From: a virus
DNA: 44,632 bases
UHGV virus genome: UHGV-0179607
Strand: one strand, 5' to 3'
The notes under the pieces are model-generated. The model was not told where the DNA came from and made no database searches. It was given only the letters and a program-made list of their open reading frames with translations. The position numbers and the translations under genes were made by a program. Below are positions 139-39,774 of the stretch, piece by piece (within the stretch, counting starts at the first letter, position 1; each line of letters opens with the position of its first letter).

Positions 139-2781
139 ATGGCAGATCAGGCAGCGGGCATCACGCTCAAGGCGGACGTCGCGCAAATTAAAACGGCTAA
201 TACTGTGCTGGACACATTTGCGCAGAAATCCGAGAACACAGAACAGAAAGTCAAAAAATTAAACGACACCCTCGGCAAGTCGAAAAAGGTCACGGGTGAC
301 GCCGCTGGCGGAATGGAAAAGTTAGCGACTGAATCTCAGCGTGCCGCCGACGGCATGACGAAACAGGAGCGACTCGCCAGCCGATTAGGCATGTCGACCA
401 AAAACCTGGGATTCGCATCGCGGAACGCCGCGTTCCAGTTACAGGATATCGCGGTTACGCTTGAGATGGGTATGCCGGTGCACCGCGTCATGCTTCAGCA
501 GCTACCACAGCTAACCGGCGCATTTGGCGGACTGGGTAACACGCTGCGTTATGTTGCAGGCTTCCTCGGCCCAGTAGGGATCGGACTTGCTGCCGTAACG
601 GCGACGTTAGGCGTGGGCGTGGCAATTACGTCACGGGCAGAGAACCAGGTAGCCGCGCTTAATAAGACGCTGGCGCTGTCCGGTAATATCTCCGGCCTCA
701 CAGCTAACCAGATCCTGGTGCTGTCCGAGAACGCCGAGCGCATGGGCGGGTCTTTTCGCAAGACGCGTGACACAATCCAGGCGCTGGCGGCGGCGGGTGT
801 GAAAGCGGGTGGTGACTTCGGCGCACTGGCGAAGGTAGTGAATGACTTCGCGAAGGTGTCCAGCCAGCCGATCGAGGATGTGGTAGCGGCGGTGGCGAAG
901 CTGTCAACCGACCCCGTTGGCGGACTGCGTGCGCTGGCGGATAAATATCACGTCGTAAACGAAGCGCAGATCCAGCAGGTACAGTCGCTCGTTGATGCGG
1001 GTCGTGAGACAGACGCAGTTGCGTTGGCTAACAAAACAGCCGCTGCGTCGTTCACCAGCATGACCAATGAGATCAAGGCGAACATGGGTACGCTTGAGCG
1101 ATCTATGAACGTCGTCACATCGGCAGCCAAATCAATGTGGGATGCCATCCTGGATGTGGGCCGCGCGCAGTCCTCCAATGAATCCGAGATGAAAGCGCGC
1201 GAATCACTGCAGCGGCTGACCACGGCTTACTATGCCGAGATGAAAGCGGTAAACGCTGCCGGTGGGGTAATGACTGAAGCGCAGAAAGCACGTATTAACA
1301 TGCTTTACAGCGAACTGGTCGCCCAGGAAAAAGTGGTGGCGTCGCTCACCCTGCGTAACCGTGCTGAGCGAGACAACGCCCGCGCCGCAGACGAATCCGC
1401 AAAGGCGAACGAGGAGGCCAACCGCACTGCCCGTGACCGCGCCGCGTTCGAGAAGGAATACGCCACCAACGCTAAGAAGCGCGCCGACGAGATCGCCCGC
1501 CTCAATTTGCTGAATAAGCGCGGCGTTATTGATGAGAAAGAACTTGCCGAGGCGGTGAAGCAGGTAAACGAGCGGTACAAAGACCCCGCCCCGAAGAAGG
1601 CTGCGGCTGTTCGCGTGGATGCCGGTATGAAAATGCTGGAAGTCGCACGGAGCGAACTGGCCCAGCTTCGAGAATCCGGCAAGCAGATCGAAGCCAACGC
1701 ATCTACGCAGACCCGCACGCAACGCGCTCAAGCGGCCTTAAACAAGCTGATTGCCGACAACGAACAGTTAATCGCGGCGAGCAAAGAAAGGGCGCTGACG
1801 GCGGCAGAGAAGCAGCAATTAGTCGAGTTCGGGCGCGTGAAGGAAGTGCGCGAGCAGATCGTCGAAGAAGCCAAATTGCTGGATGCGAAAGAGCAGCAGG
1901 TTAAGGCGCACGCGCAGATCGATGCCTTCGTTAAGAACCAGAACGCCGAACTAAAAGCCACCGCCGCGGGGTATGCGCTTTCCACTCGCGAAGCGGCAAA
2001 CCTGCGCGAAGAATTGCAGCTAATTGACCGCCTGAAGCGGGTTGGCGCTAACGATACCGATATTGACAAGGCGGTGTCTAAGCTGCGAGAAGTGCAGGAA
2101 GCACAGACCGGCGCTAACGCCTCGCTATGGGATGGATTCAGTCGCGGGCTTAAGGATAGCGTGGATGAAATGGGTAACGGATATACGCAGATGGCGACGC
2201 TAACGAAATTCACGTTCAGCGCTATGCAAGACACGATGAACGAGTTTTTCGAGACTGGCAAGCTGAACGCAAAGGATATGGTTAAGTCCATCCTTAGCGA
2301 ATTAATCAAGCTGGCTACCTCGCAGGCTTTCAAGTCGATCGTTAGCGCTTTCGGTGGCGACGGCGGCAAAAACGGATTGTTCGGCGCTATCTTCTCTGGC
2401 CTAACTAAGAATGCGGACGGCGGAGCGTACGCAGGAGGCAATCTCGCGGCCTATTCGGGGAAAGTGGTAAGCCAGCCTACCTTTTTCAGTTATGGCGTCC
2501 AGGCGTTCGCTAAGGGTGCAGGATTGATGGGCGAGGCTGGCCCCGAGGCCATCATGCCGCTGAAGCGCGGGCCGGACGGGAAACTGGGCGTTGCCGCGTC
2601 TGGCGCAGGCGGTGGTATGGTCGTGACGACTAACGTTTACACGGGGACCGGTAAGACGGATACCAGTGTTGGCGGGCCGGACCCACGTACCGCGCAGGCG
2701 TTCGGCAAGCAAATCACCGAGGCGGTGAAGGCCGAGATCGTGAAGGCGACGAAACCGGGTGGTGTACTTTACAAACGATGA
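139..2781 (+). CDS. tail tape measure protein
   Basis: 880 aa, largest ORF upstream of the L/K/I/J-like tail genes; long Ala/Gln/Lys-rich helical segments and Gly-rich C-terminal region; RBS GGGGG upstream of ATG at 139. Confidence 0.85.
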   Translation: MADQAAGITLKADVAQIKTANTVLDTFAQKSENTEQKVKKLNDTLGKSKKVTGDAAGGMEKLATESQRAADGMTKQERLASRLGMSTKNLGFASRNAAFQLQDIAVTLEMGMPVHRVMLQQLPQLTGAFGGLGNTLRYVAGFLGPVGIGLAAVTATLGVGVAITSRAENQVAALNKTLALSGNISGLTANQILVLSENAERMGGSFRKTRDTIQALAAAGVKAGGDFGALAKVVNDFAKVSSQPIEDVVAAVAKLSTDPVGGLRALADKYHVVNEAQIQQVQSLVDAGRETDAVALANKTAAASFTSMTNEIKANMGTLERSMNVVTSAAKSMWDAILDVGRAQSSNESEMKARESLQRLTTAYYAEMKAVNAAGGVMTEAQKARINMLYSELVAQEKVVASLTLRNRAERDNARAADESAKANEEANRTARDRAAFEKEYATNAKKRADEIARLNLLNKRGVIDEKELAEAVKQVNERYKDPAPKKAAAVRVDAGMKMLEVARSELAQLRESGKQIEANASTQTRTQRAQAALNKLIADNEQLIAASKERALTAAEKQQLVEFGRVKEVREQIVEEAKLLDAKEQQVKAHAQIDAFVKNQNAELKATAAGYALSTREAANLREELQLIDRLKRVGANDTDIDKAVSKLREVQEAQTGANASLWDGFSRGLKDSVDEMGNGYTQMATLTKFTFSAMQDTMNEFFETGKLNAKDMVKSILSELIKLATSQAFKSIVSAFGGDGGKNGLFGAIFSGLTKNADGGAYAGGNLAAYSGKVVSQPTFFSYGVQAFAKGAGLMGEAGPEAIMPLKRGPDGKLGVAASGAGGGMVVTTNVYTGTGKTDTSVGGPDPRTAQAFGKQITEAVKAEIVKATKPGGVLYKR

Positions 2782-2815
2782 TAAAATGGCCCTCACTACA
2801 ACGTGGGGGCTTTTT

Positions 2816-3415
2816 ATGTCACAAGGTACAATCACACTAACGAAAGGAAGTAAGACCGTTACAGGCGTGGGGACGGCGTTCCTTAGCGAGATCGGGAAGG
2901 TACTCGTATTCGCCCGCATCGACGGCAACGACTACACCGGCAAAATTGCGGCATTCAACTCGAACACGGTCATTACTCTGAAAGATAACTGGGCTGGGCC
3001 AACGAAATCCGGTGCGGCATATGAGCTAATCGAAGCACACGACCCGCGATCAAACGAATGGCCCTATTACTGGCACATGCAATTGCAGGGCGGTGGCGAC
3101 GTGCAGTTAGCTTTCCGGTCCGAGGAATTGCAATTCGGTAATGGCTACGGGCAGAACATCGCGGACGGCCCGAACGCCGAAACTAAACAGTTCCCCGTGC
3201 AATTCATAGGGCTGACTACTGACAAGTGGTGCAACCCTAAACTGGTTTACAACTTCCTTCGCGGGCACTTCGTCAAGCCGTTTGTCGTCACCGCGCCGGA
3301 TGGCGAAACAGGTTTATTCGTGGTCGATCGTTCGAGCTTGTCGTACACGGACAACGGACACCTCACGGCAACCGTATCCGCCACCCTTAAGACTGCTATT
3401 GGATTCGTAAGATGA
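2816..3415 (+). CDS. minor tail protein in the gpM position (hypothetical)
   Basis: ORF directly after the tape measure gene; start moved to ATG 2816 with GGGGGC Shine-Dalgarno. N-terminus (GTITLTKGSKTVTGVGTAF...WAGPT) resembles the N-terminus of the tail fibre at 10291. Confidence 0.5.
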   Translation: MSQGTITLTKGSKTVTGVGTAFLSEIGKVLVFARIDGNDYTGKIAAFNSNTVITLKDNWAGPTKSGAAYELIEAHDPRSNEWPYYWHMQLQGGGDVQLAFRSEELQFGNGYGQNIADGPNAETKQFPVQFIGLTTDKWCNPKLVYNFLRGHFVKPFVVTAPDGETGLFVVDRSSLSYTDNGHLTATVSATLKTAIGFVR

Positions 3416-9024: not shown

Positions 9025-9987
9025 ATACATATTCGGGATGACGAGTAGCGGGGTTGGTACTGCAATATTTTTACTTGGCATCTGGAATTGCTGCCGTGAG
9101 TAGTTGCCGATGACGCGGTTTTTAGCGACGCGCACATTATTACCCGCCATGCGTATGCCGTTCATGCGGACGTGGTTATAGCCACCGTTGTTCTGAATCA
9201 GTGCGCCGGTGTATGAAAGCTGGATCAGGCTGTTTCCAATATTCTGGTCGCCCGTTCCGATGTTAATAGTGCGGTCATATACGAACGGCTTGTTCACCGT
9301 CGAGAACGTAACCTGATTCTGGTTATTCGTCATGGTGATTCCGGCCCCCGGCGTGGGTGGTGTGTTGTTGAATATCACCAAATCCATGTCCACCGAAGCC
9401 GCCACATCGTCGATGCCTCCATAGGACGCGTTGCGGACGATAATACTGCCGCCATCGAAGCCTACTGATACGTTGCCATCATCCCATCGGGCGAACGGAA
9501 CACCGCCAACCGGCAAGGCCATACTACCGTTGACGCGCACGCGCTGTGCGTATCGGCAGGTCATTAGCTTAGACACGTTGGATATGGCGGTGAAGTCCGT
9601 CGAGTTAGCCACCAGTAAACCTGCGTTGCGCGAACCAACCGGCAGCACTTCCATTATGACGCCCGCCCATTGTGGTAAACCAGAGTACGCGCCATACGCA
9701 TCCTCCCCGCGCAGGGTGATACCACTATTACCGTTGCGAGTAACCGACGTAACGTAAAACGGGTCGGGAATTACCAGGGTCTGGTCAAACACCTCAATCA
9801 CTTCTACCGGGCGAGTTAGCGCGACGATGACCTGCGACCCATCCGTAAGCGGGGTGTTAATGGTTAGCGTCTTGTTGGACTGTGCCCGCTGGTTAAAGCT
9901 GGTGCAGTATGACGGCGCGCGGAGTCCCGCGGTTATCTCCATGCGCGGCCTTCCGTCGTTATAGTCGATAAGTATTCCAGCGCCCAT
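9022..9987 (-). CDS. putative receptor-binding protein (beta-helix-like, hypothetical)
   Basis: 321 aa from ATG 9987 with GGGAG SD; Asn/Gly/Thr/Ser-rich repetitive beta-strand composition; translationally coupled to the upstream lipoprotein gene; position between the J-like gene and the lateral tail fibre gene as in T5 (pb5/llp) and T1-like RBP loci. Confidence 0.35.
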   Translation of the reverse strand: MGAGILIDYNDGRPRMEITAGLRAPSYCTSFNQRAQSNKTLTINTPLTDGSQVIVALTRPVEVIEVFDQTLVIPDPFYVTSVTRNGNSGITLRGEDAYGAYSGLPQWAGVIMEVLPVGSRNAGLLVANSTDFTAISNVSKLMTCRYAQRVRVNGSMALPVGGVPFARWDDGNVSVGFDGGSIIVRNASYGGIDDVAASVDMDLVIFNNTPPTPGAGITMTNNQNQVTFSTVNKPFVYDRTINIGTGDQNIGNSLIQLSYTGALIQNNGGYNHVRMNGIRMAGNNVRVAKNRVIGNYSRQQFQMPSKNIAVPTPLLVIPNMY

Positions 9988-10242: not shown

Positions 10243-10270
10243 GTATTACACCGCTCAACCAGGATTGCAA
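10243..10270 (-). promoter_or_regulatory. sigma70-like promoter for the lipoprotein/RBP pair
   Basis: On the minus strand TTGCAA - 16 bp - TAATAC, about 35 nt upstream of the lipoprotein start; overlaps a copy of the TTGGTTGCA motif. Confidence 0.35.
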
Positions 10271-15826: not shown

Positions 15827-15862
15827 TCAATATAATGCAACCAATATGGTTATGCAACCAAT

Positions 15863-24491: not shown

Positions 24492-24743
24492 TTATTTTGT
24501 CTCCCAGCGGTCAATTGTTTTTGCTTCGGATGCAACCGCGAAGCGAACATATTCCAGATTGGAATCCGCCCAAATATAAAAGTCGGGGTTAGTAAAGGTG
24601 GTGCGCTTAATTTGCGCGGGTGTGTTACGGCGTTTATCTATTACGGCAACGCGGGATTGAAAGCTGCCGATGCGTTCGAATAGCCAATAGTACGGGCGCT
24701 GGTCGCGGGAATCCACCGCCTCGATTAGCGTGAAGCGTGCCAT
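24492..24743 (-). CDS. hypothetical protein
   Basis: 83 aa; GAGGA SD upstream of ATG 24743. Confidence 0.4.
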   Translation of the reverse strand: MARFTLIEAVDSRDQRPYYWLFERIGSFQSRVAVIDKRRNTPAQIKRTTFTNPDFYIWADSNLEYVRFAVASEAKTIDRWETK

Positions 24744-24791: not shown

Positions 24792-25310
24792 TTAATCTTC
24801 CAGTTCGAAATAAGTTTCGACGATTTCTTTAAGATCTTTGTGGAAGTCTTCGACGTCGTCATCTTCCAGCTTGGCGATTGATTTGATCTCGAACGATTCC
24901 AGCAGGTCGTCGAATTCGTCGTTGGCATCGTCGTCGTCACCACCAGCGATAATAGCGGCATACTGTTTGATCTCGTCGCGCATCTCTGCCAGCGGATCGG
25001 CATCTTTCTTGCCTTTGCCTTTCGCCGGTGCTTTTTTACCCTTCGCCGGTTTTTCGTCTTCGGCTTCTTCATCGTCGTCATCTTCTACGACTTCTTTTTT
25101 GGCCTTACCTTTAGCCGGTGCTTTTTTGGTTTTCGCCGGTTTTTCGTCTTCGGTTTCATCGTCGTCATCTTCTACGACTTCTTTTTTGGCCTTAGACGGC
25201 TTCTTGTCTCCCGGCTTACCAACGGCAGCGCCAACGGTTTCATAATGCTTAGCGATGGTTTCCAGTGCTACTACGCCGCGAGTAATCAGGTTTACGATTT
25301 GTTCAAACAT
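24792..25310 (-). CDS. acidic repeat protein, first gene of the leftward early operon
   Basis: 172 aa; two tandem ~20-aa repeats KKEVVEDDDDE..EDEKPAK.KKAPAKGK and a strongly acidic C-terminus; encoded by ~60-bp DNA tandem repeats at about 25030-25200; GGAG SD. Confidence 0.5.
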   Translation of the reverse strand: MFEQIVNLITRGVVALETIAKHYETVGAAVGKPGDKKPSKAKKEVVEDDDDETEDEKPAKTKKAPAKGKAKKEVVEDDDDEEAEDEKPAKGKKAPAKGKGKKDADPLAEMRDEIKQYAAIIAGGDDDDANDEFDDLLESFEIKSIAKLEDDDVEDFHKDLKEIVETYFELED

Positions 25311-25717: not shown

Positions 25718-26047
25718 ATGAATGTAAACGACGCAATCGAAATGTTAACGAAGACTGTTAGCAGTGAAACAAGCCGGTCATGGGCTTATACCGATGCCGT
25801 TGGGGCGGTGCTGTTTGAGGTCGAGCGCCTGCGCAGTGTAGAAAAAGAATTACGCGCCAGGCTGGAATTGCTCAACGGTACGGCGGCGAGCAAGCTGCAA
25901 AAACACAATGAGGAAATGGAAGAATACAAAAAGCAGGTTATCCGTTTGCGCGCCGAGGGAAAGTCATGGGCGATGATCGCGGAGTTGACAGGGATTAACC
26001 AGAGCACCGTGCGCTCCTGGGTACGCAATAACAAAACTTCGAAGTAA
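25718..26047 (+). CDS. helix-turn-helix DNA-binding protein
   Basis: 109 aa; C-terminal KSWAMIAELTGINQSTVRSWV is a typical HTH; first gene of the rightward operon. Confidence 0.5.
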   Translation: MNVNDAIEMLTKTVSSETSRSWAYTDAVGAVLFEVERLRSVEKELRARLELLNGTAASKLQKHNEEMEEYKKQVIRLRAEGKSWAMIAELTGINQSTVRSWVRNNKTSK

Positions 26048-26057
26048 GGCCACGGCA

Positions 26058-28322
26058 ATGAGCTTAATTAAATTCGCTGTTACAAGACCCGCTAAAAAAG
26101 GCGAAAAAGCCAGGGCGGAAAACTTCCAGATGACCACCGATGAATTTTTCGAATTTATCAAAGATGCGAAAGAAATCTCCTCGGTGCATATCAACAAGAC
26201 GGAAGATAAAGCCGAGTATGCGCGCCGCAAGCGTAAGGCCGACGGCATCGTGGCGTATACCAGTGACGGATTGCGTCGTAAGACCAGTGCGGTGGACCGC
26301 TCGATCCTGTTCTTCGATATTGACCGTACCGACACCCGCACCCTACGCCGCTGCCGTAAGGCGTTCATTGACGCGGGGCTGGAACACGTATTTCACACCA
26401 CAACCGGCGACCGTCACCCACTGAAAGGCGGCACGCGTTGCGCTCGATTCCTGGTGCTCACTGACAAGCCTGTACCGGCTGAAGACCTGGGCCGCGTCCA
26501 GTATGCACTATTACACCAACTGGGTCTGTCAGATGTGGACTTCGACGATTGCACGAAAGACACAAACCGCCTGATGTACCTGCCACACCAGCAGTCTGTT
26601 ATTAAGTGCCACTACGGCAAGCGCGCCCGCGTCCGTCGTCTGCTTCGCCTGGCGGATAAGTTGGGCGCGGAAAAAGAGGAAGTACGCCGCGAGCTTACCC
26701 AGGGCGACGACGCAGTGGCAGACGGCATTCTGGACTGGTGCTTCCAGGCAGGATTCGAGGAGTTATCTTCCGGGCGGGGCTATGAAGTGCCGTGCCCTAA
26801 CGAACATCTACACAGCGGCGAAGGGTCCACCGCTATTATGGTTAAGGACGGCGAGATCCGTTTCAAGTGCATGCACACAGGCAACGAGTGTTGCTCGGAA
26901 CTGAATAGACACCAGCACCTGGCGCTGCGTCTTATCGGGATCCCGGACCACCTGAACGTCGAGCCACACAATATGTCCCGTAAGCAAATCGCCGCCATCC
27001 TTCCGGGGCTGGACGACGAGGAAGTCGAATCCTTATATGAACATATTGTTGATGCGGTTGGCGACGGCGAAGAATACGGCGTGTGCACCGATGCGGATCT
27101 GGATAACGAGCCGGTTGCGCTGTTCAGTAAGCACGACCCGATTATCGAGGGGTTGATTAACTTTAAATCGACCTGGTACATGGCGGGTGAGTCGAATATA
27201 GGTAAGTCTTTCTACGTGCTGGGCCAGATGGGCGCGGTTGCTGCCGGTATTCCGTTTGGCGGTGCGAAGGTCGTCCAGTCTCATTGCTTCTATTTCGACG
27301 CGGAAGGTGGCGAAGCCTCTAACCAGCGTAAAGAAGCATTGCAGATTAAATATGAGCACGACCTGGACAAGCTGCACATTATCGATCTGCAGTCACGCGG
27401 CTGGGATATCACCAGCAAATCGGGCTTGCGCGAAGTTATCAGCTTTATCAACCGCACCGCTAACGGCGAACCGGTTGGCCTGGTGGCGTTCGACTCACTC
27501 AACCAGACTGTTGCGTTGCGGTCCGCTGATGCTAAACCGTTCGACGAGAACAACGCCAGCGATATGGGTGAAGTGGTCAAAGCGCTGAAGGCCATCGCGG
27601 AAAATACAGGTGGTAGTGCGGGCGTCATCCACCACCCGGCTAAAGGTGCAAACGGCAGCAGAACGCCACGCGGGTCCGGCGCGCTGCATGGTGCTGTCGA
27701 TTCTGCGTTCTTCCTGGAACAGCCGGACGACAACCAGCCCGGACAATTGAACCTGTATCACGAAAAGTCACGTAACGGCATCAAGCAAGCGCCGCGCGGC
27801 TTCGTCCTGCTCAAGTGCAAGGTGAAGGTGGATCTCCGCAAGTCAGAAGCGTTCGAGGCGCACCAGTCCACCAGCACCGGGCCAGACTTCGGCGACGTGG
27901 TTGCCGGATGGGACGTCAAGCCGATTGCCTCCACGCCACGCGACGAGACTCTCTACCTCGTACCGGTTGCCCTGGCACCTTTCGCTATTGAACAGGCGAA
28001 GGCGGCGGGCAAGGCCGCGGTTAAGGAAGAGAACACCGCCGGACCGCGCAACGAAAAAGAGAAAGTGCTTTATGCGGCACTGGAAAAACTGATGGAAGAT
28101 AACCCGGACCATACTGGATTCAGTAAATCGGCAATCGTCCGCCAGGCGGGACTCGCAAAAGGGGGCACTTCGACGAAGGCAATCGACGATATGGTGGAGC
28201 GCGGGGTAATAGGTTTTTATACAGATCCGCACACCGGGGCCATCTATGGGTCTTCTAATTTGGTCATCAAATCGGATATCCCTATCACGCTTTCCGCGAC
28301 CGATGACGATTTAAAAGATTAA
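26058..28322 (+). CDS. primase-polymerase (AEP-like) / P-loop replicative helicase fusion protein
   Basis: N-terminal ILFFDIDRTD resembles the AEP/prim-pol DxD motif; central Cys/His cluster (CPNEHLHSG...CMHTGNECC); P-loop MAGESNIGKSF of RecA/DnaB-like (AAA_25-type) helicases; 754 aa. Confidence 0.55.
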   Translation: MSLIKFAVTRPAKKGEKARAENFQMTTDEFFEFIKDAKEISSVHINKTEDKAEYARRKRKADGIVAYTSDGLRRKTSAVDRSILFFDIDRTDTRTLRRCRKAFIDAGLEHVFHTTTGDRHPLKGGTRCARFLVLTDKPVPAEDLGRVQYALLHQLGLSDVDFDDCTKDTNRLMYLPHQQSVIKCHYGKRARVRRLLRLADKLGAEKEEVRRELTQGDDAVADGILDWCFQAGFEELSSGRGYEVPCPNEHLHSGEGSTAIMVKDGEIRFKCMHTGNECCSELNRHQHLALRLIGIPDHLNVEPHNMSRKQIAAILPGLDDEEVESLYEHIVDAVGDGEEYGVCTDADLDNEPVALFSKHDPIIEGLINFKSTWYMAGESNIGKSFYVLGQMGAVAAGIPFGGAKVVQSHCFYFDAEGGEASNQRKEALQIKYEHDLDKLHIIDLQSRGWDITSKSGLREVISFINRTANGEPVGLVAFDSLNQTVALRSADAKPFDENNASDMGEVVKALKAIAENTGGSAGVIHHPAKGANGSRTPRGSGALHGAVDSAFFLEQPDDNQPGQLNLYHEKSRNGIKQAPRGFVLLKCKVKVDLRKSEAFEAHQSTSTGPDFGDVVAGWDVKPIASTPRDETLYLVPVALAPFAIEQAKAAGKAAVKEENTAGPRNEKEKVLYAALEKLMEDNPDHTGFSKSAIVRQAGLAKGGTSTKAIDDMVERGVIGFYTDPHTGAIYGSSNLVIKSDIPITLSATDDDLKD

Positions 28323-28397
28323 ATTCTGCGCGCATTGGTTGCCGATATGGGAATTCCCATATCGGTAGATGATTAAATTCTGCGCGCATTGGTTGCC
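28317..28397. repeat. 27-bp perfect direct repeat flanking a 24-bp perfect palindrome
   Basis: GATTAAATTCTGCGCGCATTGGTTGCC at 28317-28343 and 28371-28397; between them CCGATATGGGAATTCCCATATCGG (28342-28365); copy 1 contains the primase stop codon. Confidence 0.7.
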
Positions 28398-28482
28398 ATT
28401 TTGCGTGCTTTTAGTCGGTCGTATTGGTTGCCGTGTAGTGTAAATATAGTGAATAGTTATGCAATAAAACTGCATAAAGTAA

Positions 28483-28639
28483 GCGGGACAAAAAGCGGGA
28501 CAGACCAGGGGCGGGACAAAGCGGGACAGCACCCCTGTCCCGCCCCGGATGACGCGGCCTGGCGAGGAGCGGGACAGCGGGACAGCACCCCAGTCTTTCA
28601 GACTAGACGGGGGGTCTGGCACCCCCCTCGTCTGAGACT
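28483..28639. repeat. iteron array (GCGGGACA x6-7, one inverted) plus ~48-bp conserved-stem hairpin; copy 1 of a duplicated element
   Basis: GCGGGACA at 28483, 28495, 28511, 28521, 28569, 28578 and inverted at 28536; large imperfect inverted repeat 28591-28640; same architecture at the window ends. Confidence 0.7.
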
Positions 28640-28799
28640 GCATAAAATCCAGGATTGCATAATACACGGCAACAAGATGCGAATTGCGGTCGTCGATGAA
28701 CTAGGCAACCAATGCGAGTTGCAGAATGGTGGGTGAAAAATGCAGTTTGCAGTTGCAGCAGATAGCGATCAACTTTTTCATACGCGTGATTAATATTGG

Positions 28800-28828
28800 T
28801 TGCACCCACTCCAGCACCCTGCTATATT
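28800..28828 (+). promoter_or_regulatory. sigma70-like promoter with conserved leader
   Basis: TTGCAC - 17 bp - TATATT followed by GGTTGCACACCAACA; the 22-mer 28822-28843 recurs inverted at 38936-38957. Confidence 0.4.
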
Positions 28829-28858
28829 GGTTGCACACCAACATGAGGACTGAACAAA

Positions 28859-29335
28859 ATGAAATTTCCAGTAATCATCAAAGACGGTAAATCAACTATC
28901 ACTTTCACCGGCAACGACCACGGCACTTACGAGAGCGGCGCGGCTTGCATGTCCACCCTGGAAGATATGATGATTCGTGTTAATTCCGGTAAAGCCTCAA
29001 TTATTACCCCCCTCGCGGAGAGTACCAAAATGAAAGCATTAATCTGGAATTACACAATGGCGGTGGCGAAGCTGTATGAAGCGAAGCACACAGACGGCAA
29101 CGCAGACGACGCGCGCCAGGTTGTCATCCTGGCCCAGCAGGGAATCAGGCACGCGTTCGACGATATGTTTGCCAGCCTGGACGAACTGGAACCGCTGCGC
29201 GTGGCAATCTGCGAATATGCGATGGCTTTTGCCCGCGAGCGCCTGGCGTATCGCTTCGGGATCGGCGAGACGGCAGTGACAAACGTCGCCCGGATTAAAG
29301 CCCAGCGCGAGCTATTCGACCAGCTTGCGAAATAA
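28859..29335 (+). CDS. hypothetical protein
   Basis: 158 aa; GAGGA SD; no motif recognised. Confidence 0.45.
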   Translation: MKFPVIIKDGKSTITFTGNDHGTYESGAACMSTLEDMMIRVNSGKASIITPLAESTKMKALIWNYTMAVAKLYEAKHTDGNADDARQVVILAQQGIRHAFDDMFASLDELEPLRVAICEYAMAFARERLAYRFGIGETAVTNVARIKAQRELFDQLAK

Positions 29336-37670: not shown

Positions 37671-37782
37671 CCCGTCCGCAGACCCCGACGAGGATTTGAT
37701 GATTGACGTGAAAAATATGGAATGCGGGGCGAAGCTAAGGGCGCAGGTGCTGGAGTTGCAGCAAATAATTAAGGGGCCGTAA
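37552..37782 (+). CDS. o-spanin (Rz1-like outer-membrane lipoprotein)
   Basis: ATG 37552 with AAGAGG SD; signal peptide MLRALTALIVVLMLSAC with lipobox LSAC; Pro-rich mature part; overlaps the 3' part of the i-spanin gene in another frame. Confidence 0.55.
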   Translation: MLRALTALIVVLMLSACGSSNAPLMPLTESALRPPCKFDSPSADPDEDLMIDVKNMECGAKLRAQVLELQQIIKGP

Positions 37783-37794
37783 TAGCCCCTTTTT
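37772..37794 (+). terminator. rho-independent terminator between convergent genes
   Basis: Stem AGGGGC / GCCCCT, loop CGTAATA, followed by TTTT; includes the o-spanin stop codon. Confidence 0.55.
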
Positions 37795-37796
37795 CA

Positions 37797-38561
37797 TTAG
37801 CGCGGAATGCCGCAAATCTCGTTGAGTGTTTTCACGTCCAGCGCCACCGCCGTGGATTTTGGCTTGTCCGGGTATGGGATGAATTGCTCAACTTCAGGCC
37901 ATGCCTTAATCAGCTTCTTGTCAGTATTGTGCAGGTCCAGCACACCGGTAACGGTGAGTTTGAACGCGTCATACTTAGCACGCAACTCACGGCGGGCCTT
38001 ATCGTTACGGTCCAGGCGCTTGCAGAAGTCATGGTCCGCAGGGTAGACTATGCGACCGCGTGGCTTATATATCGGCAGCGCTTTCCCGTCCTCGTCCACT
38101 TCGCACACTGAAGCTAACATAATTTCCTCATACCCCGGTACGATATCGCCGAGATCGGGAGATAGCGTATTCATGTATTTATATTCCCAGTATCCTCGAT
38201 GTACTCGGTATTGGTATCCGTCGCCGCTCAATGACAAGGTGCGAACATTTCCGCCCGCGTTGATTTCGAAAGTGGCGTCGTAAACGCTGCCGATACCTTT
38301 CGGGCGGTCGGTGTTATAACTATACGTCGCCTTGTTGGTGTATACACAGACGCCGTACATCTGCGACGGGTCATCGCCGATTGCTTCAATTCGCGCGAGT
38401 AGCTCGGCGAACGTGCGAATGCCTTCCGGCATACAGTCAAGCGTAATGGCATAAGCCAGGTCGCGCGAGTCCATCATGATTTGTTTGGCTTCGGTTGCGA
38501 TTTCGTGGTCGCGCAGGATGTTAGCCAGAATCTGATTTTTAATGTCTTTAGTCAGTCTCAT
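37797..38561 (-). CDS. hypothetical protein (reverse-oriented cassette gene 2)
   Basis: 254 aa; GAGGA SD preceded by a GGGGC-GAAA-GCCCC hairpin; opposite orientation to the flanking morphogenesis genes; no motif recognised. Confidence 0.5.
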   Translation of the reverse strand: MRLTKDIKNQILANILRDHEIATEAKQIMMDSRDLAYAITLDCMPEGIRTFAELLARIEAIGDDPSQMYGVCVYTNKATYSYNTDRPKGIGSVYDATFEINAGGNVRTLSLSGDGYQYRVHRGYWEYKYMNTLSPDLGDIVPGYEEIMLASVCEVDEDGKALPIYKPRGRIVYPADHDFCKRLDRNDKARRELRAKYDAFKLTVTGVLDLHNTDKKLIKAWPEVEQFIPYPDKPKSTAVALDVKTLNEICGIPR

Positions 38562-38600
38562 TTTTGTGTCCTCGTTGTTGGGGCTTTCGCCCCGTTTGGC

Positions 38601-38915
38601 TTAGTTAAATTTGATGTTGCCATCGGTGGAAGTTAAGCGAGCGCATACAGCCTCAACGGCATCGACGCACATGAAATCGTTAAAGGCTTCTACCAGGGCG
38701 TTGATGAAAGATGCCGGAACCAGGCCGCAAGCCGGATTATCGAATGCCGCAGAGTTGATCGCCGCTTTTGCCGCTTCGGAAGCATTCATGCTCTGGCACA
38801 GATTCAGCGCTTCCGCGTTACGCATTGCGTGAAATGTAAAGGTATTCGCTACGGTAGCTTTATTGAAACGGGCCATTGCGGCGTCTACTGGAGTTGCTAC
38901 GGTCATGTTAGTCAT
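38601..38915 (-). CDS. hypothetical protein (reverse-oriented cassette gene 1)
   Basis: About 104 aa from ATG 38915 (MTNMTVATP...) with AAGGA SD; Ala-rich; track start at 38975 lies upstream of the predicted -10. Confidence 0.45.
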   Translation of the reverse strand: MTNMTVATPVDAAMARFNKATVANTFTFHAMRNAEALNLCQSMNASEAAKAAINSAAFDNPACGLVPASFINALVEAFNDFMCVDAVEAVCARLTSTDGNIKFN

Positions 38916-38950
38916 TTTGTTTTCCTTCATATCTCTGTTGGTGTGCAACC

Positions 38951-38980
38951 AATATAGTGCAACCAACATACGCAATGCAA
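38951..38980 (-). promoter_or_regulatory. sigma70-like promoter for the reverse cassette
   Basis: Minus strand TTGCAT - 18 bp - TATATT followed by GGTTGCACACCAACA, identical over 22 bp to the promoter at 28822-28843. Confidence 0.4.
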
Positions 38981-39069
38981 GCGAATTTTGCGATTATTTT
39001 TATCGCTGATAATATTAAGGCGTGAAGTCAAGCGGGTGGCCCGCTTTGCCACAATCCCAGGGGGATAGC

Positions 39070-39774
39070 ATGAAACTTACTAAAGCAGAATATGACGCGT
39101 TGCCGGAAGGTATGAAGGCGCTTTTTGTCGCCGATGGTGATGGGTATAAATCAACGTTCATGACCGCCGAAGAAGTACAGGCGGAAATCAAGGGTCTGAA
39201 AGACAACAACGCGAAGCTGGTGAGCGAGAAGAAAGCAGAAGCCGAACGTCGCGCCGAAGCTGAGCGCCTTGCGAAAGAGAAAGAGGAAGCCGCTGCGCGC
39301 AAAAATGGCGACCTCGAAGCGATCGACAAGTCCTGGAAAGATAAGTTTGCGAAACACGAAGCAGACACATCGGGAAAAATCGAAGCCTACCGCAAGCAGA
39401 TCCACGATCTAACCATCGGCAGCGCTGCCAAAGACCTGGCATCGAAGCTATTCGGTAAGAATGCAGGCATTATGCAACGCCACGTTATGGACCGCCTCAC
39501 GCTGGAAGACGGCGAAGACGGCAGCTTGAAAGTGCGTGTTTTGCAGGATGGCAAACCGTCCGCCCTTACTATGGAAGAACTGGAAAAAGAGTTCCGTAAT
39601 AACGCCGATTTCGCATCCGTCCTGGCGGGTACGCCTGCCGGTGGTGCTCCGAGTAAACCGACGCAGGTTGTCGAAGATGCGAAGCCCAAAATTACGATGG
39701 GCCATAGCTTCGGCATCACTGACCTTACGAAACAGGCCGGGGATATTATCGCTAAGATGGGCGACGACGAGTAA
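39070..39774 (+). CDS. head scaffolding protein
   Basis: 234 aa from ATG 39070 with AGGGGGA SD; highly charged Ala/Glu/Lys-rich coiled-coil-like sequence; immediately upstream of the major capsid gene. Confidence 0.55.
   Translation: MKLTKAEYDALPEGMKALFVADGDGYKSTFMTAEEVQAEIKGLKDNNAKLVSEKKAEAERRAEAERLAKEKEEAAARKNGDLEAIDKSWKDKFAKHEADTSGKIEAYRKQIHDLTIGSAAKDLASKLFGKNAGIMQRHVMDRLTLEDGEDGSLKVRVLQDGKPSALTMEELEKEFRNNADFASVLAGTPAGGAPSKPTQVVEDAKPKITMGHSFGITDLTKQAGDIIAKMGDDE

Follow-up and report, generated by a model that had tools for sequence, protein, structure and literature searches.

A reverse-strand unit with a constant Nmad5 gene and a variable cargo position in the head module of an Escherichia coli Dhillonvirus

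Within the window, the 44,632-nucleotide stretch of viral DNA analyzed here (UHGV virus genome UHGV-0179607), two adjacent minus-strand genes lie among plus-strand head and spanin genes, raising the question of how such genes are transcribed and what their products contribute during infection. A preliminary description, made from the sequence alone, had regarded the pair as a moron-like cassette with its own promoter and terminator, of the kind that serves host takeover, anti-defense or exclusion. The locus was found to be an autonomous reverse-strand unit that combines one constant gene of the Nmad5 family with one variable cargo position, a layout that is real but mostly ordinary. Part of this picture was already known, as the larger gene has been published as nmad5 and linked to the Tmn defense. 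The smaller, accessory gene has the usual traits of a moron. The anatomy of the cargo slot, the putative replication-operon ancestry of Nmad5, the promoter family and the lack of support for an enzyme label are modest but useful additions, and current understanding is not overturned by them.

Genes and signals of the reverse-strand unit

The window was assigned to a Dhillonvirus of E. coli, a genus of coliphages in frequent use for therapy and as models. A region of 2.1 kb that includes the locus shares 93 to 95% identity with many Escherichia Dhillonvirus phages, the best hit being JLBYU60 (95.2% nucleotide identity), and at least 80% of the region was covered in 134 of the 155 matching phage records. 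Annotated relatives have the order terminase, portal, head morphogenesis, two spanins, two reverse "hypothetical proteins," scaffold and major capsid. The plus-strand neighbors identified in the window are portal, head morphogenesis (phrog_241), i-spanin and o-spanin (phrog_2536 and phrog_5672), scaffold (phrog_206, with its real start at 39070) and major capsid.

The open reading frame (ORF) list agreed with the preliminary description in placing two minus-strand genes, of 104 and 254 amino acids (aa), between the plus-strand spanin and scaffold genes. The 254-aa gene (37797-38561, minus strand) was assigned to the Nmad5 family from its matches to PF18757 and phrog_1965. The 104-aa accessory gene (38601-38915, minus strand) belongs to phrog_24635; its ORF extends from 38601 to 38975 and would encode 124 aa from a TTG, the plausible start being the ATG at 38915, which has AAGGA ahead of it and gives 104 aa. 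Comparison with relatives yielded dN/dS values of 0.10 to 0.13 for the 254-aa gene and 0.06 to 0.29 for the 104-aa gene, indicating purifying selection on both. An Rfam search of the region matched no family.

A sigma-70-like promoter was recognized by sequence reading and conservation on the minus strand at exactly the coordinates proposed earlier (38951-38980). It comprises a -35 hexamer TTGCAT (38980-38975), an 18-nt spacer and a -10 hexamer TATATT (38956-38951), with transcription predicted to start at about 38944. A generic promoter scan left it below threshold and unlisted because the -35 hexamer matches at just three of six positions. The promoter was kept in every relative inspected (SM_S22, BMA1, WF5505 and LM40P1), with or without the 104-aa gene, and takes the form TTGCAA with a 17-nt spacer in the phages whose slot for that gene is empty.

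Two repeated elements connect this promoter with other parts of the genome. The -10 hexamer and the initial transcribed region make up a 21-nt block, TATATTGGTTGCACACCAACA (38936-38956, minus strand), which is repeated exactly at 28823-28843 on the plus strand; two exact copies in the window compare with none expected from 100 shuffles. The twin is located about 15 nt upstream of the start codon of a plus-strand gene (28859-29335, phrog_9839) that adjoins an origin-like repeat region. In addition, 9-mer counting identified two direct copies of TTGGTTGCA on either side of the -10 hexamer (38958-38966 and 38944-38952, minus strand). When up to one mismatch was allowed, this 9-mer had 27 matches in the window, where 11.5 were expected and shuffles reached at most 21. 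It also sits at sigma-70-like promoters of the minus-strand replication operon, where it forms their -35 part, namely, at 15861 (TTGCAT-17-TATATT), 18803 (TTGCTG-17-TATAGT) and 13928 (TTGCAA-17-TATCTT). The paired copies are a possible operator or promoter-family signature, and by these shared motifs the cassette promoter appears to belong to the same family as the promoters within the phage replication operon. From this resemblance we infer that host RNA polymerase would transcribe the unit alongside the early and replication genes, probably early or in mid-infection and separately from late transcription.

Folding recovered the GNRA-loop hairpin that had been described between the genes. It has the sequence GGGGC-GAAA-GCCCC, with a GAAA loop, and is located at 38580-38593 on the minus strand, at the 3' end of an insertion considered below (-11.5 kcal/mol, z = -3.1). 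As it has no downstream U-tract, read-through into Nmad5 is expected. The convergent terminator, previously drawn at 37772-37794, corresponds to a two-way hairpin at 37771-37791, identified by terminator scan and folding, that overlaps the o-spanin stop codon and has a terminator-like score on either strand. Transcription from portal to spanin on the plus strand would stop here, as would that of the minus-strand unit, which would be driven by a host sigma-70-type promoter and end at a terminator shared with the spanin genes.

A variable cargo position ahead of Nmad5

The bounds of a 360-bp insertion (38576-38935, minus strand) became apparent when the window was compared with SM_S22, WF5505 and LM40P1, phages whose slot is empty. 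The insertion consists of a ribosome-binding site, the 104-aa gene and the 3' hairpin, with a CCAACA direct repeat at its bounds; it has the promoter on one side and the ribosome-binding site of Nmad5 on the other. In the three empty-slot phages TATATTGGTTGCACACCAACA runs straight to the ACGAGGA..ATG of Nmad5, while BMA1, like the window, has 360 extra bases. The 104-aa gene was found in 61 Dhillonvirus records compared with about 147 that carry Nmad5 (about 40%). A separate count of empty slots by junction query (90 records) was dropped, as pieces up to 575 nt apart were joined and insertion-bearing records could also reach full coverage.

In other Dhillonviruses the slot is empty or holds different cargo, of which at least three unrelated genes were seen. 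These are a 135-aa ORFan in L021, L027 and HK578 (seven records), a 53-aa ORFan in L019/EK99P-1 (four records) and a beta-clamp-like gene of 170 to 184 aa in EP23 (16 records at 80% identity or more); in WF5505 a beta-clamp-like gene is found downstream of Nmad5 instead. The presence of a beta-clamp-like gene within the Nmad5 unit of some Dhillonviruses was counted toward the replication context of the unit. The 135-aa gene of L027 has an MKENKM leader in common with the 104-aa gene.

Homologs of the 104-aa protein, sharing 55 to 73% identity, were identified in a Pantoea Dibbivirus, in Ackermannviridae and in two metagenomic phages. In these unrelated phages they are always surrounded by small early genes, and an Nmad5 gene never adjoins them. 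This, together with the finding that the genes upstream of distant Nmad5 loci are unrelated to the 104-aa protein, led to the rejection of an obligate two-gene system. The homolog in L005 adjoins an Imm-like superinfection gene, and that in L004 has a perfect TTGACA-17-TATAAT promoter and a GGGGCC-GAAA-GGCCCC hairpin. A candidate relationship between WF5505 gp19 and the 184-aa gene that follows the L004 homolog was also examined, and the two were found to be unrelated.

The insert has a GC content of 0.503 compared with 0.544 for the genome, a modest deviation, and a GC3 of 0.54 compared with about 0.62, or with 0.59 to 0.69 in neighboring and replication genes. The encoded protein is acidic (pI 4.8) and predicted to be helical, with H29, C63, C83 and C91 invariant; its structure model was too poor (pLDDT 66.6) for a fold to be inferred.

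Morons of lambdoid phages, in the concept of Juhala and Hendrix, are extra genes, often with their own promoter and terminator, that are present in only some close relatives. The 104-aa gene resembles them in being a discrete insertion that relatives either have or lack, in its 3' hairpin, in its reduced GC and GC3, and in having homologs scattered in unrelated phages. It differs in that the resident promoter is borrowed and the hairpin lacks a U-tract, and the window phage, unlike the lambdoid phages, is virulent and so offers no prophage expression. As a presence/absence insertion in a slot with differing cargo, the gene is well supported as moron-like and would qualify as a textbook moron. 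The moron-like architecture claimed for both genes in the preliminary description therefore holds for the 104-aa gene, which varied among related phages, and not for the 254-aa gene, which was constant across 11 of 11 contigs and about 147 records.

The Nmad5 protein and its genomic surroundings

It had been stated earlier that neither protein contained a recognizable motif. The 254-aa protein is, however, a strong match to Pfam family PF18757, or Nmad5 (E = 1.5e-57, 195.4 bits against a cutoff of 27). The match spans protein residues 1 to 253 and profile positions 1 to 206 of 206, and the protein also matched phrog_1965 (E = 2.8e-62). With E ≤ 1e-3 as the limit, 870 representative clusters fall within the Nmad5 family.

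When 33 diverse members were aligned, L217, W221, L246, N247 and P253 proved invariant, with M1-T4, G103, G104, P222, K233 and C250 conserved in at least 90%. The window protein has the family-wide conserved stretches, which are an N-terminal MRLT, a GG pair, W221-P222 and a C-terminal TLNxxCGxP tail. Near-invariant residues are mostly G, P and A, and neither catalytic-looking invariant residues nor conserved polar catalytic residues were found among the 33 aligned members; a catalytic site using, for example, the near-invariant C250 or K233 is still conceivable. AlphaFold2 produced an alpha+beta model of moderate confidence (pLDDT 78.5, pTM 0.76). The C-terminal tail (residues 233 to 254, AVALxxxTLNxxCGxP) is at once the best conserved and the worst modeled part of the protein (pLDDT below 50), and a segment that is conserved yet poorly modeled is typical of one that folds on a partner. 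A structure search of BFVD with Nmad5 returned only relatives of Nmad5, and no known fold, including any known enzyme fold, was found for it. The present analysis found no support for labeling Nmad5 a DNA modification enzyme.

A full-length copy of Nmad5 is present in about 147 phage GenBank records, and its surroundings were surveyed in 27 related loci to which the proteins of the window were mapped. In each of the 11 Dhillonvirus-like IMG/VR contigs the genes run MCP, scaffold, (cargo), Nmad5, spanin, MuF and portal, and Nmad5 is antiparallel to the rest. Overall, Nmad5 occupies this head-module position in essentially all Dhillonviruses. A different arrangement was seen in a sister group of C130_2-like contigs (L002, L015 and L030 to L035), whose replication proteins are 48 to 66% identical to those of the window. 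Here Nmad5 lies close to the beginning of the early replication operon in eight of eight contigs, the order being a divergent helicase-primase, then Nmad5, p83, a DUF2800 exonuclease, an Enc34-type SSB, PolA and SNF2. Nmad5 is absent from the replication-operon site in the window. The genes that flank Nmad5 in L015 are homologs of the window genes at 24792-25310 (33% identity) and 24492-24743 (29% identity), which adjoin each other. This arrangement suggests that the Dhillonvirus Nmad5 left the replication-operon slot or was re-acquired and now resides in the head module, on the strand of the replication operon. As the sister-phage Nmad5 proteins share 23 to 28% identity with the window protein, the apparent relocation could be an independent acquisition.

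Further contexts were found outside these groups. Nmad5 adjoins DUF2800 and PolA in L013, directly follows N in the pL operon of the lambdoid phage HK244 and, in YuA, adjoins PolA inside a thymidine hypermodification cluster. The variety of these contexts indicates that association with modification genes is lineage specific, whereas a setting among early or replication genes is the general pattern. YuA gp15 (186 aa), which is encoded within the hypermodification cluster, belongs to the same PF18757 family as the window protein, and their C-terminal 80 residues are approximately 41% identical; the W-P pair and the TLNxxCGxP tail are common to YuA/M6-type Pseudomonas phages and the window Nmad5. 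In contrast to gp15, the window protein has a central insertion of approximately 45 residues and is encoded in the head module, where its neighbors are spanin and scaffold genes; no base-modification enzyme, such as aGPT-Pplase, a dU/dC hydroxymethylase, a kinase or a radical-SAM or PLP enzyme, was found beside it.

Nmad5, the Tmn defense and competing explanations

The nmad5 genes of Dhillonvirus SM_A8 and SM_S22, described as "near the capsid gene," were studied by Yamashita et al. (2025, Commun Biol 8:290; PMC11846954). Escape mutants on Tmn-expressing cells carried Nmad5 K216E in SM_A8, numbered K296E in SM_S22, and reversion of the mutation brought Tmn sensitivity back. Deletion of nmad5 left the phage viable and still Tmn sensitive, the gene could not be cloned owing to apparent toxicity, and the true anti-Tmn gene was ORF35, elsewhere in the genome (PMC11846954). 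The label "DNA modification enzyme" used in that study is taken solely from the Pfam name. SM_S22 and the window carry the same gene at the same position, with 92% protein identity, although SM_S22 lacks the 104-aa insertion that the window phage has upstream of Nmad5. The published 334-aa SM_S22 protein is an over-extended ORF that reaches 80 codons into the opposite-strand scaffold gene, and K296 of SM_S22 is therefore K216 of the window. Residue 216 of the window protein is K, and the published genetics carry over directly to the window gene; the corresponding column of the 33-sequence alignment contains K in 23, Q in 7, A in 2 and R in 1.

According to a 2026 preprint (PMC13001434), Tmn is activated when it directly recognizes T2 RIIB, which is an early protein and replisome component; in RIIB, one residue separates binding from activation of Tmn. 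RIIB and Nmad5 are alike in being early (presumably so for Nmad5), dispensable and linked to the replication stage, and single-residue changes in either abolish Tmn-mediated defense. They share no sequence or fold relation, and loss-of-function mutants of RIIB escape Tmn, whereas nmad5 deletion does not.

The explanation that we consider probable is that of an opposite-strand unit with a replication-type promoter, carrying a dispensable, non-catalytic Nmad5 and a moron slot. Nmad5 would be an accessory protein of the replication or recombination stage, one that probably binds a partner through its conserved C-terminal tail rather than acting as an enzyme. Such a replication-linked, non-catalytic role is suggested through guilt by association and absence of evidence. 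The Tmn NTPase would "see" Nmad5, or be affected by it, during infection. As K216E escapes Tmn and deletion does not, K216E most likely creates a neomorphic form of Nmad5 that is non-activating or blocking. The 104-aa protein may be a horizontally mobile accessory factor with a host or defense target.

A different view, possible but doubtful, is that both genes form an anti-defense or host-takeover cassette whose products inhibit defense or exclusion systems. The unit has its own promoter and a variable cargo slot, the 104-aa gene is mobile, occurs among small early genes and has an Imm-like neighbor in L005, and Nmad5 can be deleted, is toxic on cloning and has a genetic connection to Tmn, all of which would fit. 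However, neither protein is known to inhibit a defense system, and the annotation libraries searched gave neither protein an anti-defense name, only "unknown" families. Phages with wild-type Nmad5 are sensitive to Tmn, and their actual anti-Tmn gene is elsewhere in the genome. Furthermore, Nmad5 is fixed in the genus and typically found within replication operons, whereas most anti-defense genes come and go. The connection to defense drawn in the preliminary description was thus borne out in that Nmad5 is a determinant of Tmn sensitivity and escape, but not in the sense of a demonstrated anti-defense gene.

It is improbable that Nmad5 is a DNA-modification enzyme and that Tmn senses the modification of phage DNA, even though Nmad5 is treated as such in PMC11846954. 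Membership of PF18757, the "nucleotide modification associated domain 5," favors an enzyme, as does the setting of the YuA/M6-type gp15 amid a PLP enzyme, a radical-SAM enzyme, a kinase, gp14 and a dU hydroxymethylase. On the other hand, no partner modification gene is present beside the window Nmad5, and the genome otherwise has ordinary Dam and C5 methyltransferases, which were the only modification genes in the annotation of JLBYU60 and YD-2008.s. Homologs are carried in lambdoid pL and replication operons without modification genes, and conserved polar catalytic residues and a known enzyme fold were both lacking from the family members compared. The unchanged Tmn sensitivity of the nmad5 deletion is also hard to reconcile with a sensed modification. 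With the enzyme label unsupported and the sister-phage gene positioned in the replication operon, the Tmn escape data read differently.

Very improbable is a unit that is mainly regulatory, in which antisense transcription and the terminator split the late region or damp read-through and the proteins are incidental; the two-way terminator at the spanin stop codon and a divergent promoter-like region ahead of the scaffold gene point in this direction, but both ORFs are under purifying selection and Nmad5 is a widespread family. Head-assembly, decoration or other structural proteins, the outcome that the preliminary description had set against its own reading, are hardly tenable, since the genus-wide conservation of the Nmad5 position in the head module is accompanied by nothing structural: the genes are on the opposite strand behind a promoter of the replication-operon type, the nmad5 deletion still plaques, Nmad5 homologs of other phages, including those in the sister-phage replication operon, are in early operons, and the 104-aa gene is missing from most relatives.

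Returning to the favored reading of a non-catalytic Nmad5 accompanied by a moron slot, it can be extended to a joint proposal, which we regard as rather unlikely in its entirety, that Nmad5 is a non-enzyme early replication adaptor and the slot a plug-and-play site for counter-defense. The conserved C-terminal tail may be the part of the adaptor that acts, and the Tmn NTPase may recognize Nmad5 directly, by analogy with T2 RIIB. K216E as a binding-competent but non-activating decoy would explain why the point mutant escapes and the deletion does not. Into the slot, which has a shared MKENKM... leader, Dhillonviruses may swap small counter-defense genes, the 104-aa H/C3 protein being among them. 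The nmad5 gene is already an engineering target for Tmn evasion. The cargo slot is a defined site that tolerates insertions in nature and follows a conserved promoter, which makes it suited to arming phages; it also offers five small candidate accessory genes.

Start and upstream signals of the scaffold gene

The stretch at 38981-39069, ahead of the scaffold gene, contains a divergent promoter-like sequence (TTGCGA-16-TAATAT), an inverted repeat (GCGAT-N7-ATCGC), and a hairpin in the 5'-UTR of the scaffold gene (AGCGGG-TGG-CCCGCT), and it was kept throughout its length in every relative inspected. This would mean that transcription of the scaffold and capsid genes is separate from that of the portal-to-spanin genes. 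A mechanical call of the scaffold ORF began at a GTG at 39022, whereas the start that is conserved, and that is used in the annotation of relatives, is an ATG at 39070; this ATG has a Shine-Dalgarno sequence and yields a product beginning MKLTKAEYDAL.

Annotation and neighbors of Nmad5

In the Dhillonvirus SM_S22 (GenBank accession number PP627283.1), the deposited CDS for Nmad5 (1561-2565) encodes 334 aa, as its start was called 80 codons too early, and the over-extended frame overlaps the scaffold gene on the opposite strand. The conserved start lies at position 1801 of this locus, giving a protein of 254 aa. Because of the early start call, the published K296E is equivalent to K216E, the change that confers escape from Tmn defense (PMC11846954).

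A gene for a half-size beta-clamp-like protein is predicted to be cotranscribed with Nmad5 in some Dhillonviruses, lying upstream in EP23 (9407-9919) and downstream in WF5505 (2581-3135). Its product matched PF02767 below threshold, as well as phrog_3007 and phrog_947, with homologs in 272 phage records, many of them from phages of Salmonella, Escherichia, and Klebsiella.

Repeats, promoters, and an origin-like region

Downstream of the helicase-primase gene is a noncoding stretch of approximately 540 bp (28300-28860) harboring at least six GCGGGACA repeats and three or four copies of GCGCATTGGTTGCC, two of which fall inside a 32-nt repeat. It also contains an inverted repeat. The repeats are directly followed by the twin of the cassette promoter (28823-28843, plus strand). 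The region resembles an iteron-type origin of replication or control region.

The 9-mer TTGGTTGCA was matched 27 times across the window with no more than one mismatch, compared with 11.5 matches expected. Copies lie, for example, at 10266, 13920/13933, 15836/15853, 18783/18795, 22604/22620, 28796/28827, 32255/32278, and 38944/38958; they are frequently paired and often supply the -35 region of sigma-70-like promoters. TTGGTTGCA may be the site for a phage DNA-binding protein, which could be, for example, the 109-aa HTH/sigma-70 region 4-like protein encoded at 25718-26047.

Other phages carrying homologs of the cassette genes

A homolog of the 104-aa gene is carried by the phage on a 47-kb Logan contig (SRR23967305), in which (at 1344-3287) an adenylosuccinate-synthetase-like protein is encoded beside an HD phosphohydrolase and a PolA, a gene set reminiscent of PurZ-type 2-aminoadenine (Z-base) genomes. 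In a more distant phage (Logan contig ERR14173769, 2120-7797), Nmad5 is 35% identical and lies within a long series of small early genes that is convergent with the spanin (DUF2514), Mu-F, and portal genes. The Nmad5-containing run and the head genes are therefore tail-to-tail, much like the arrangement in the window.
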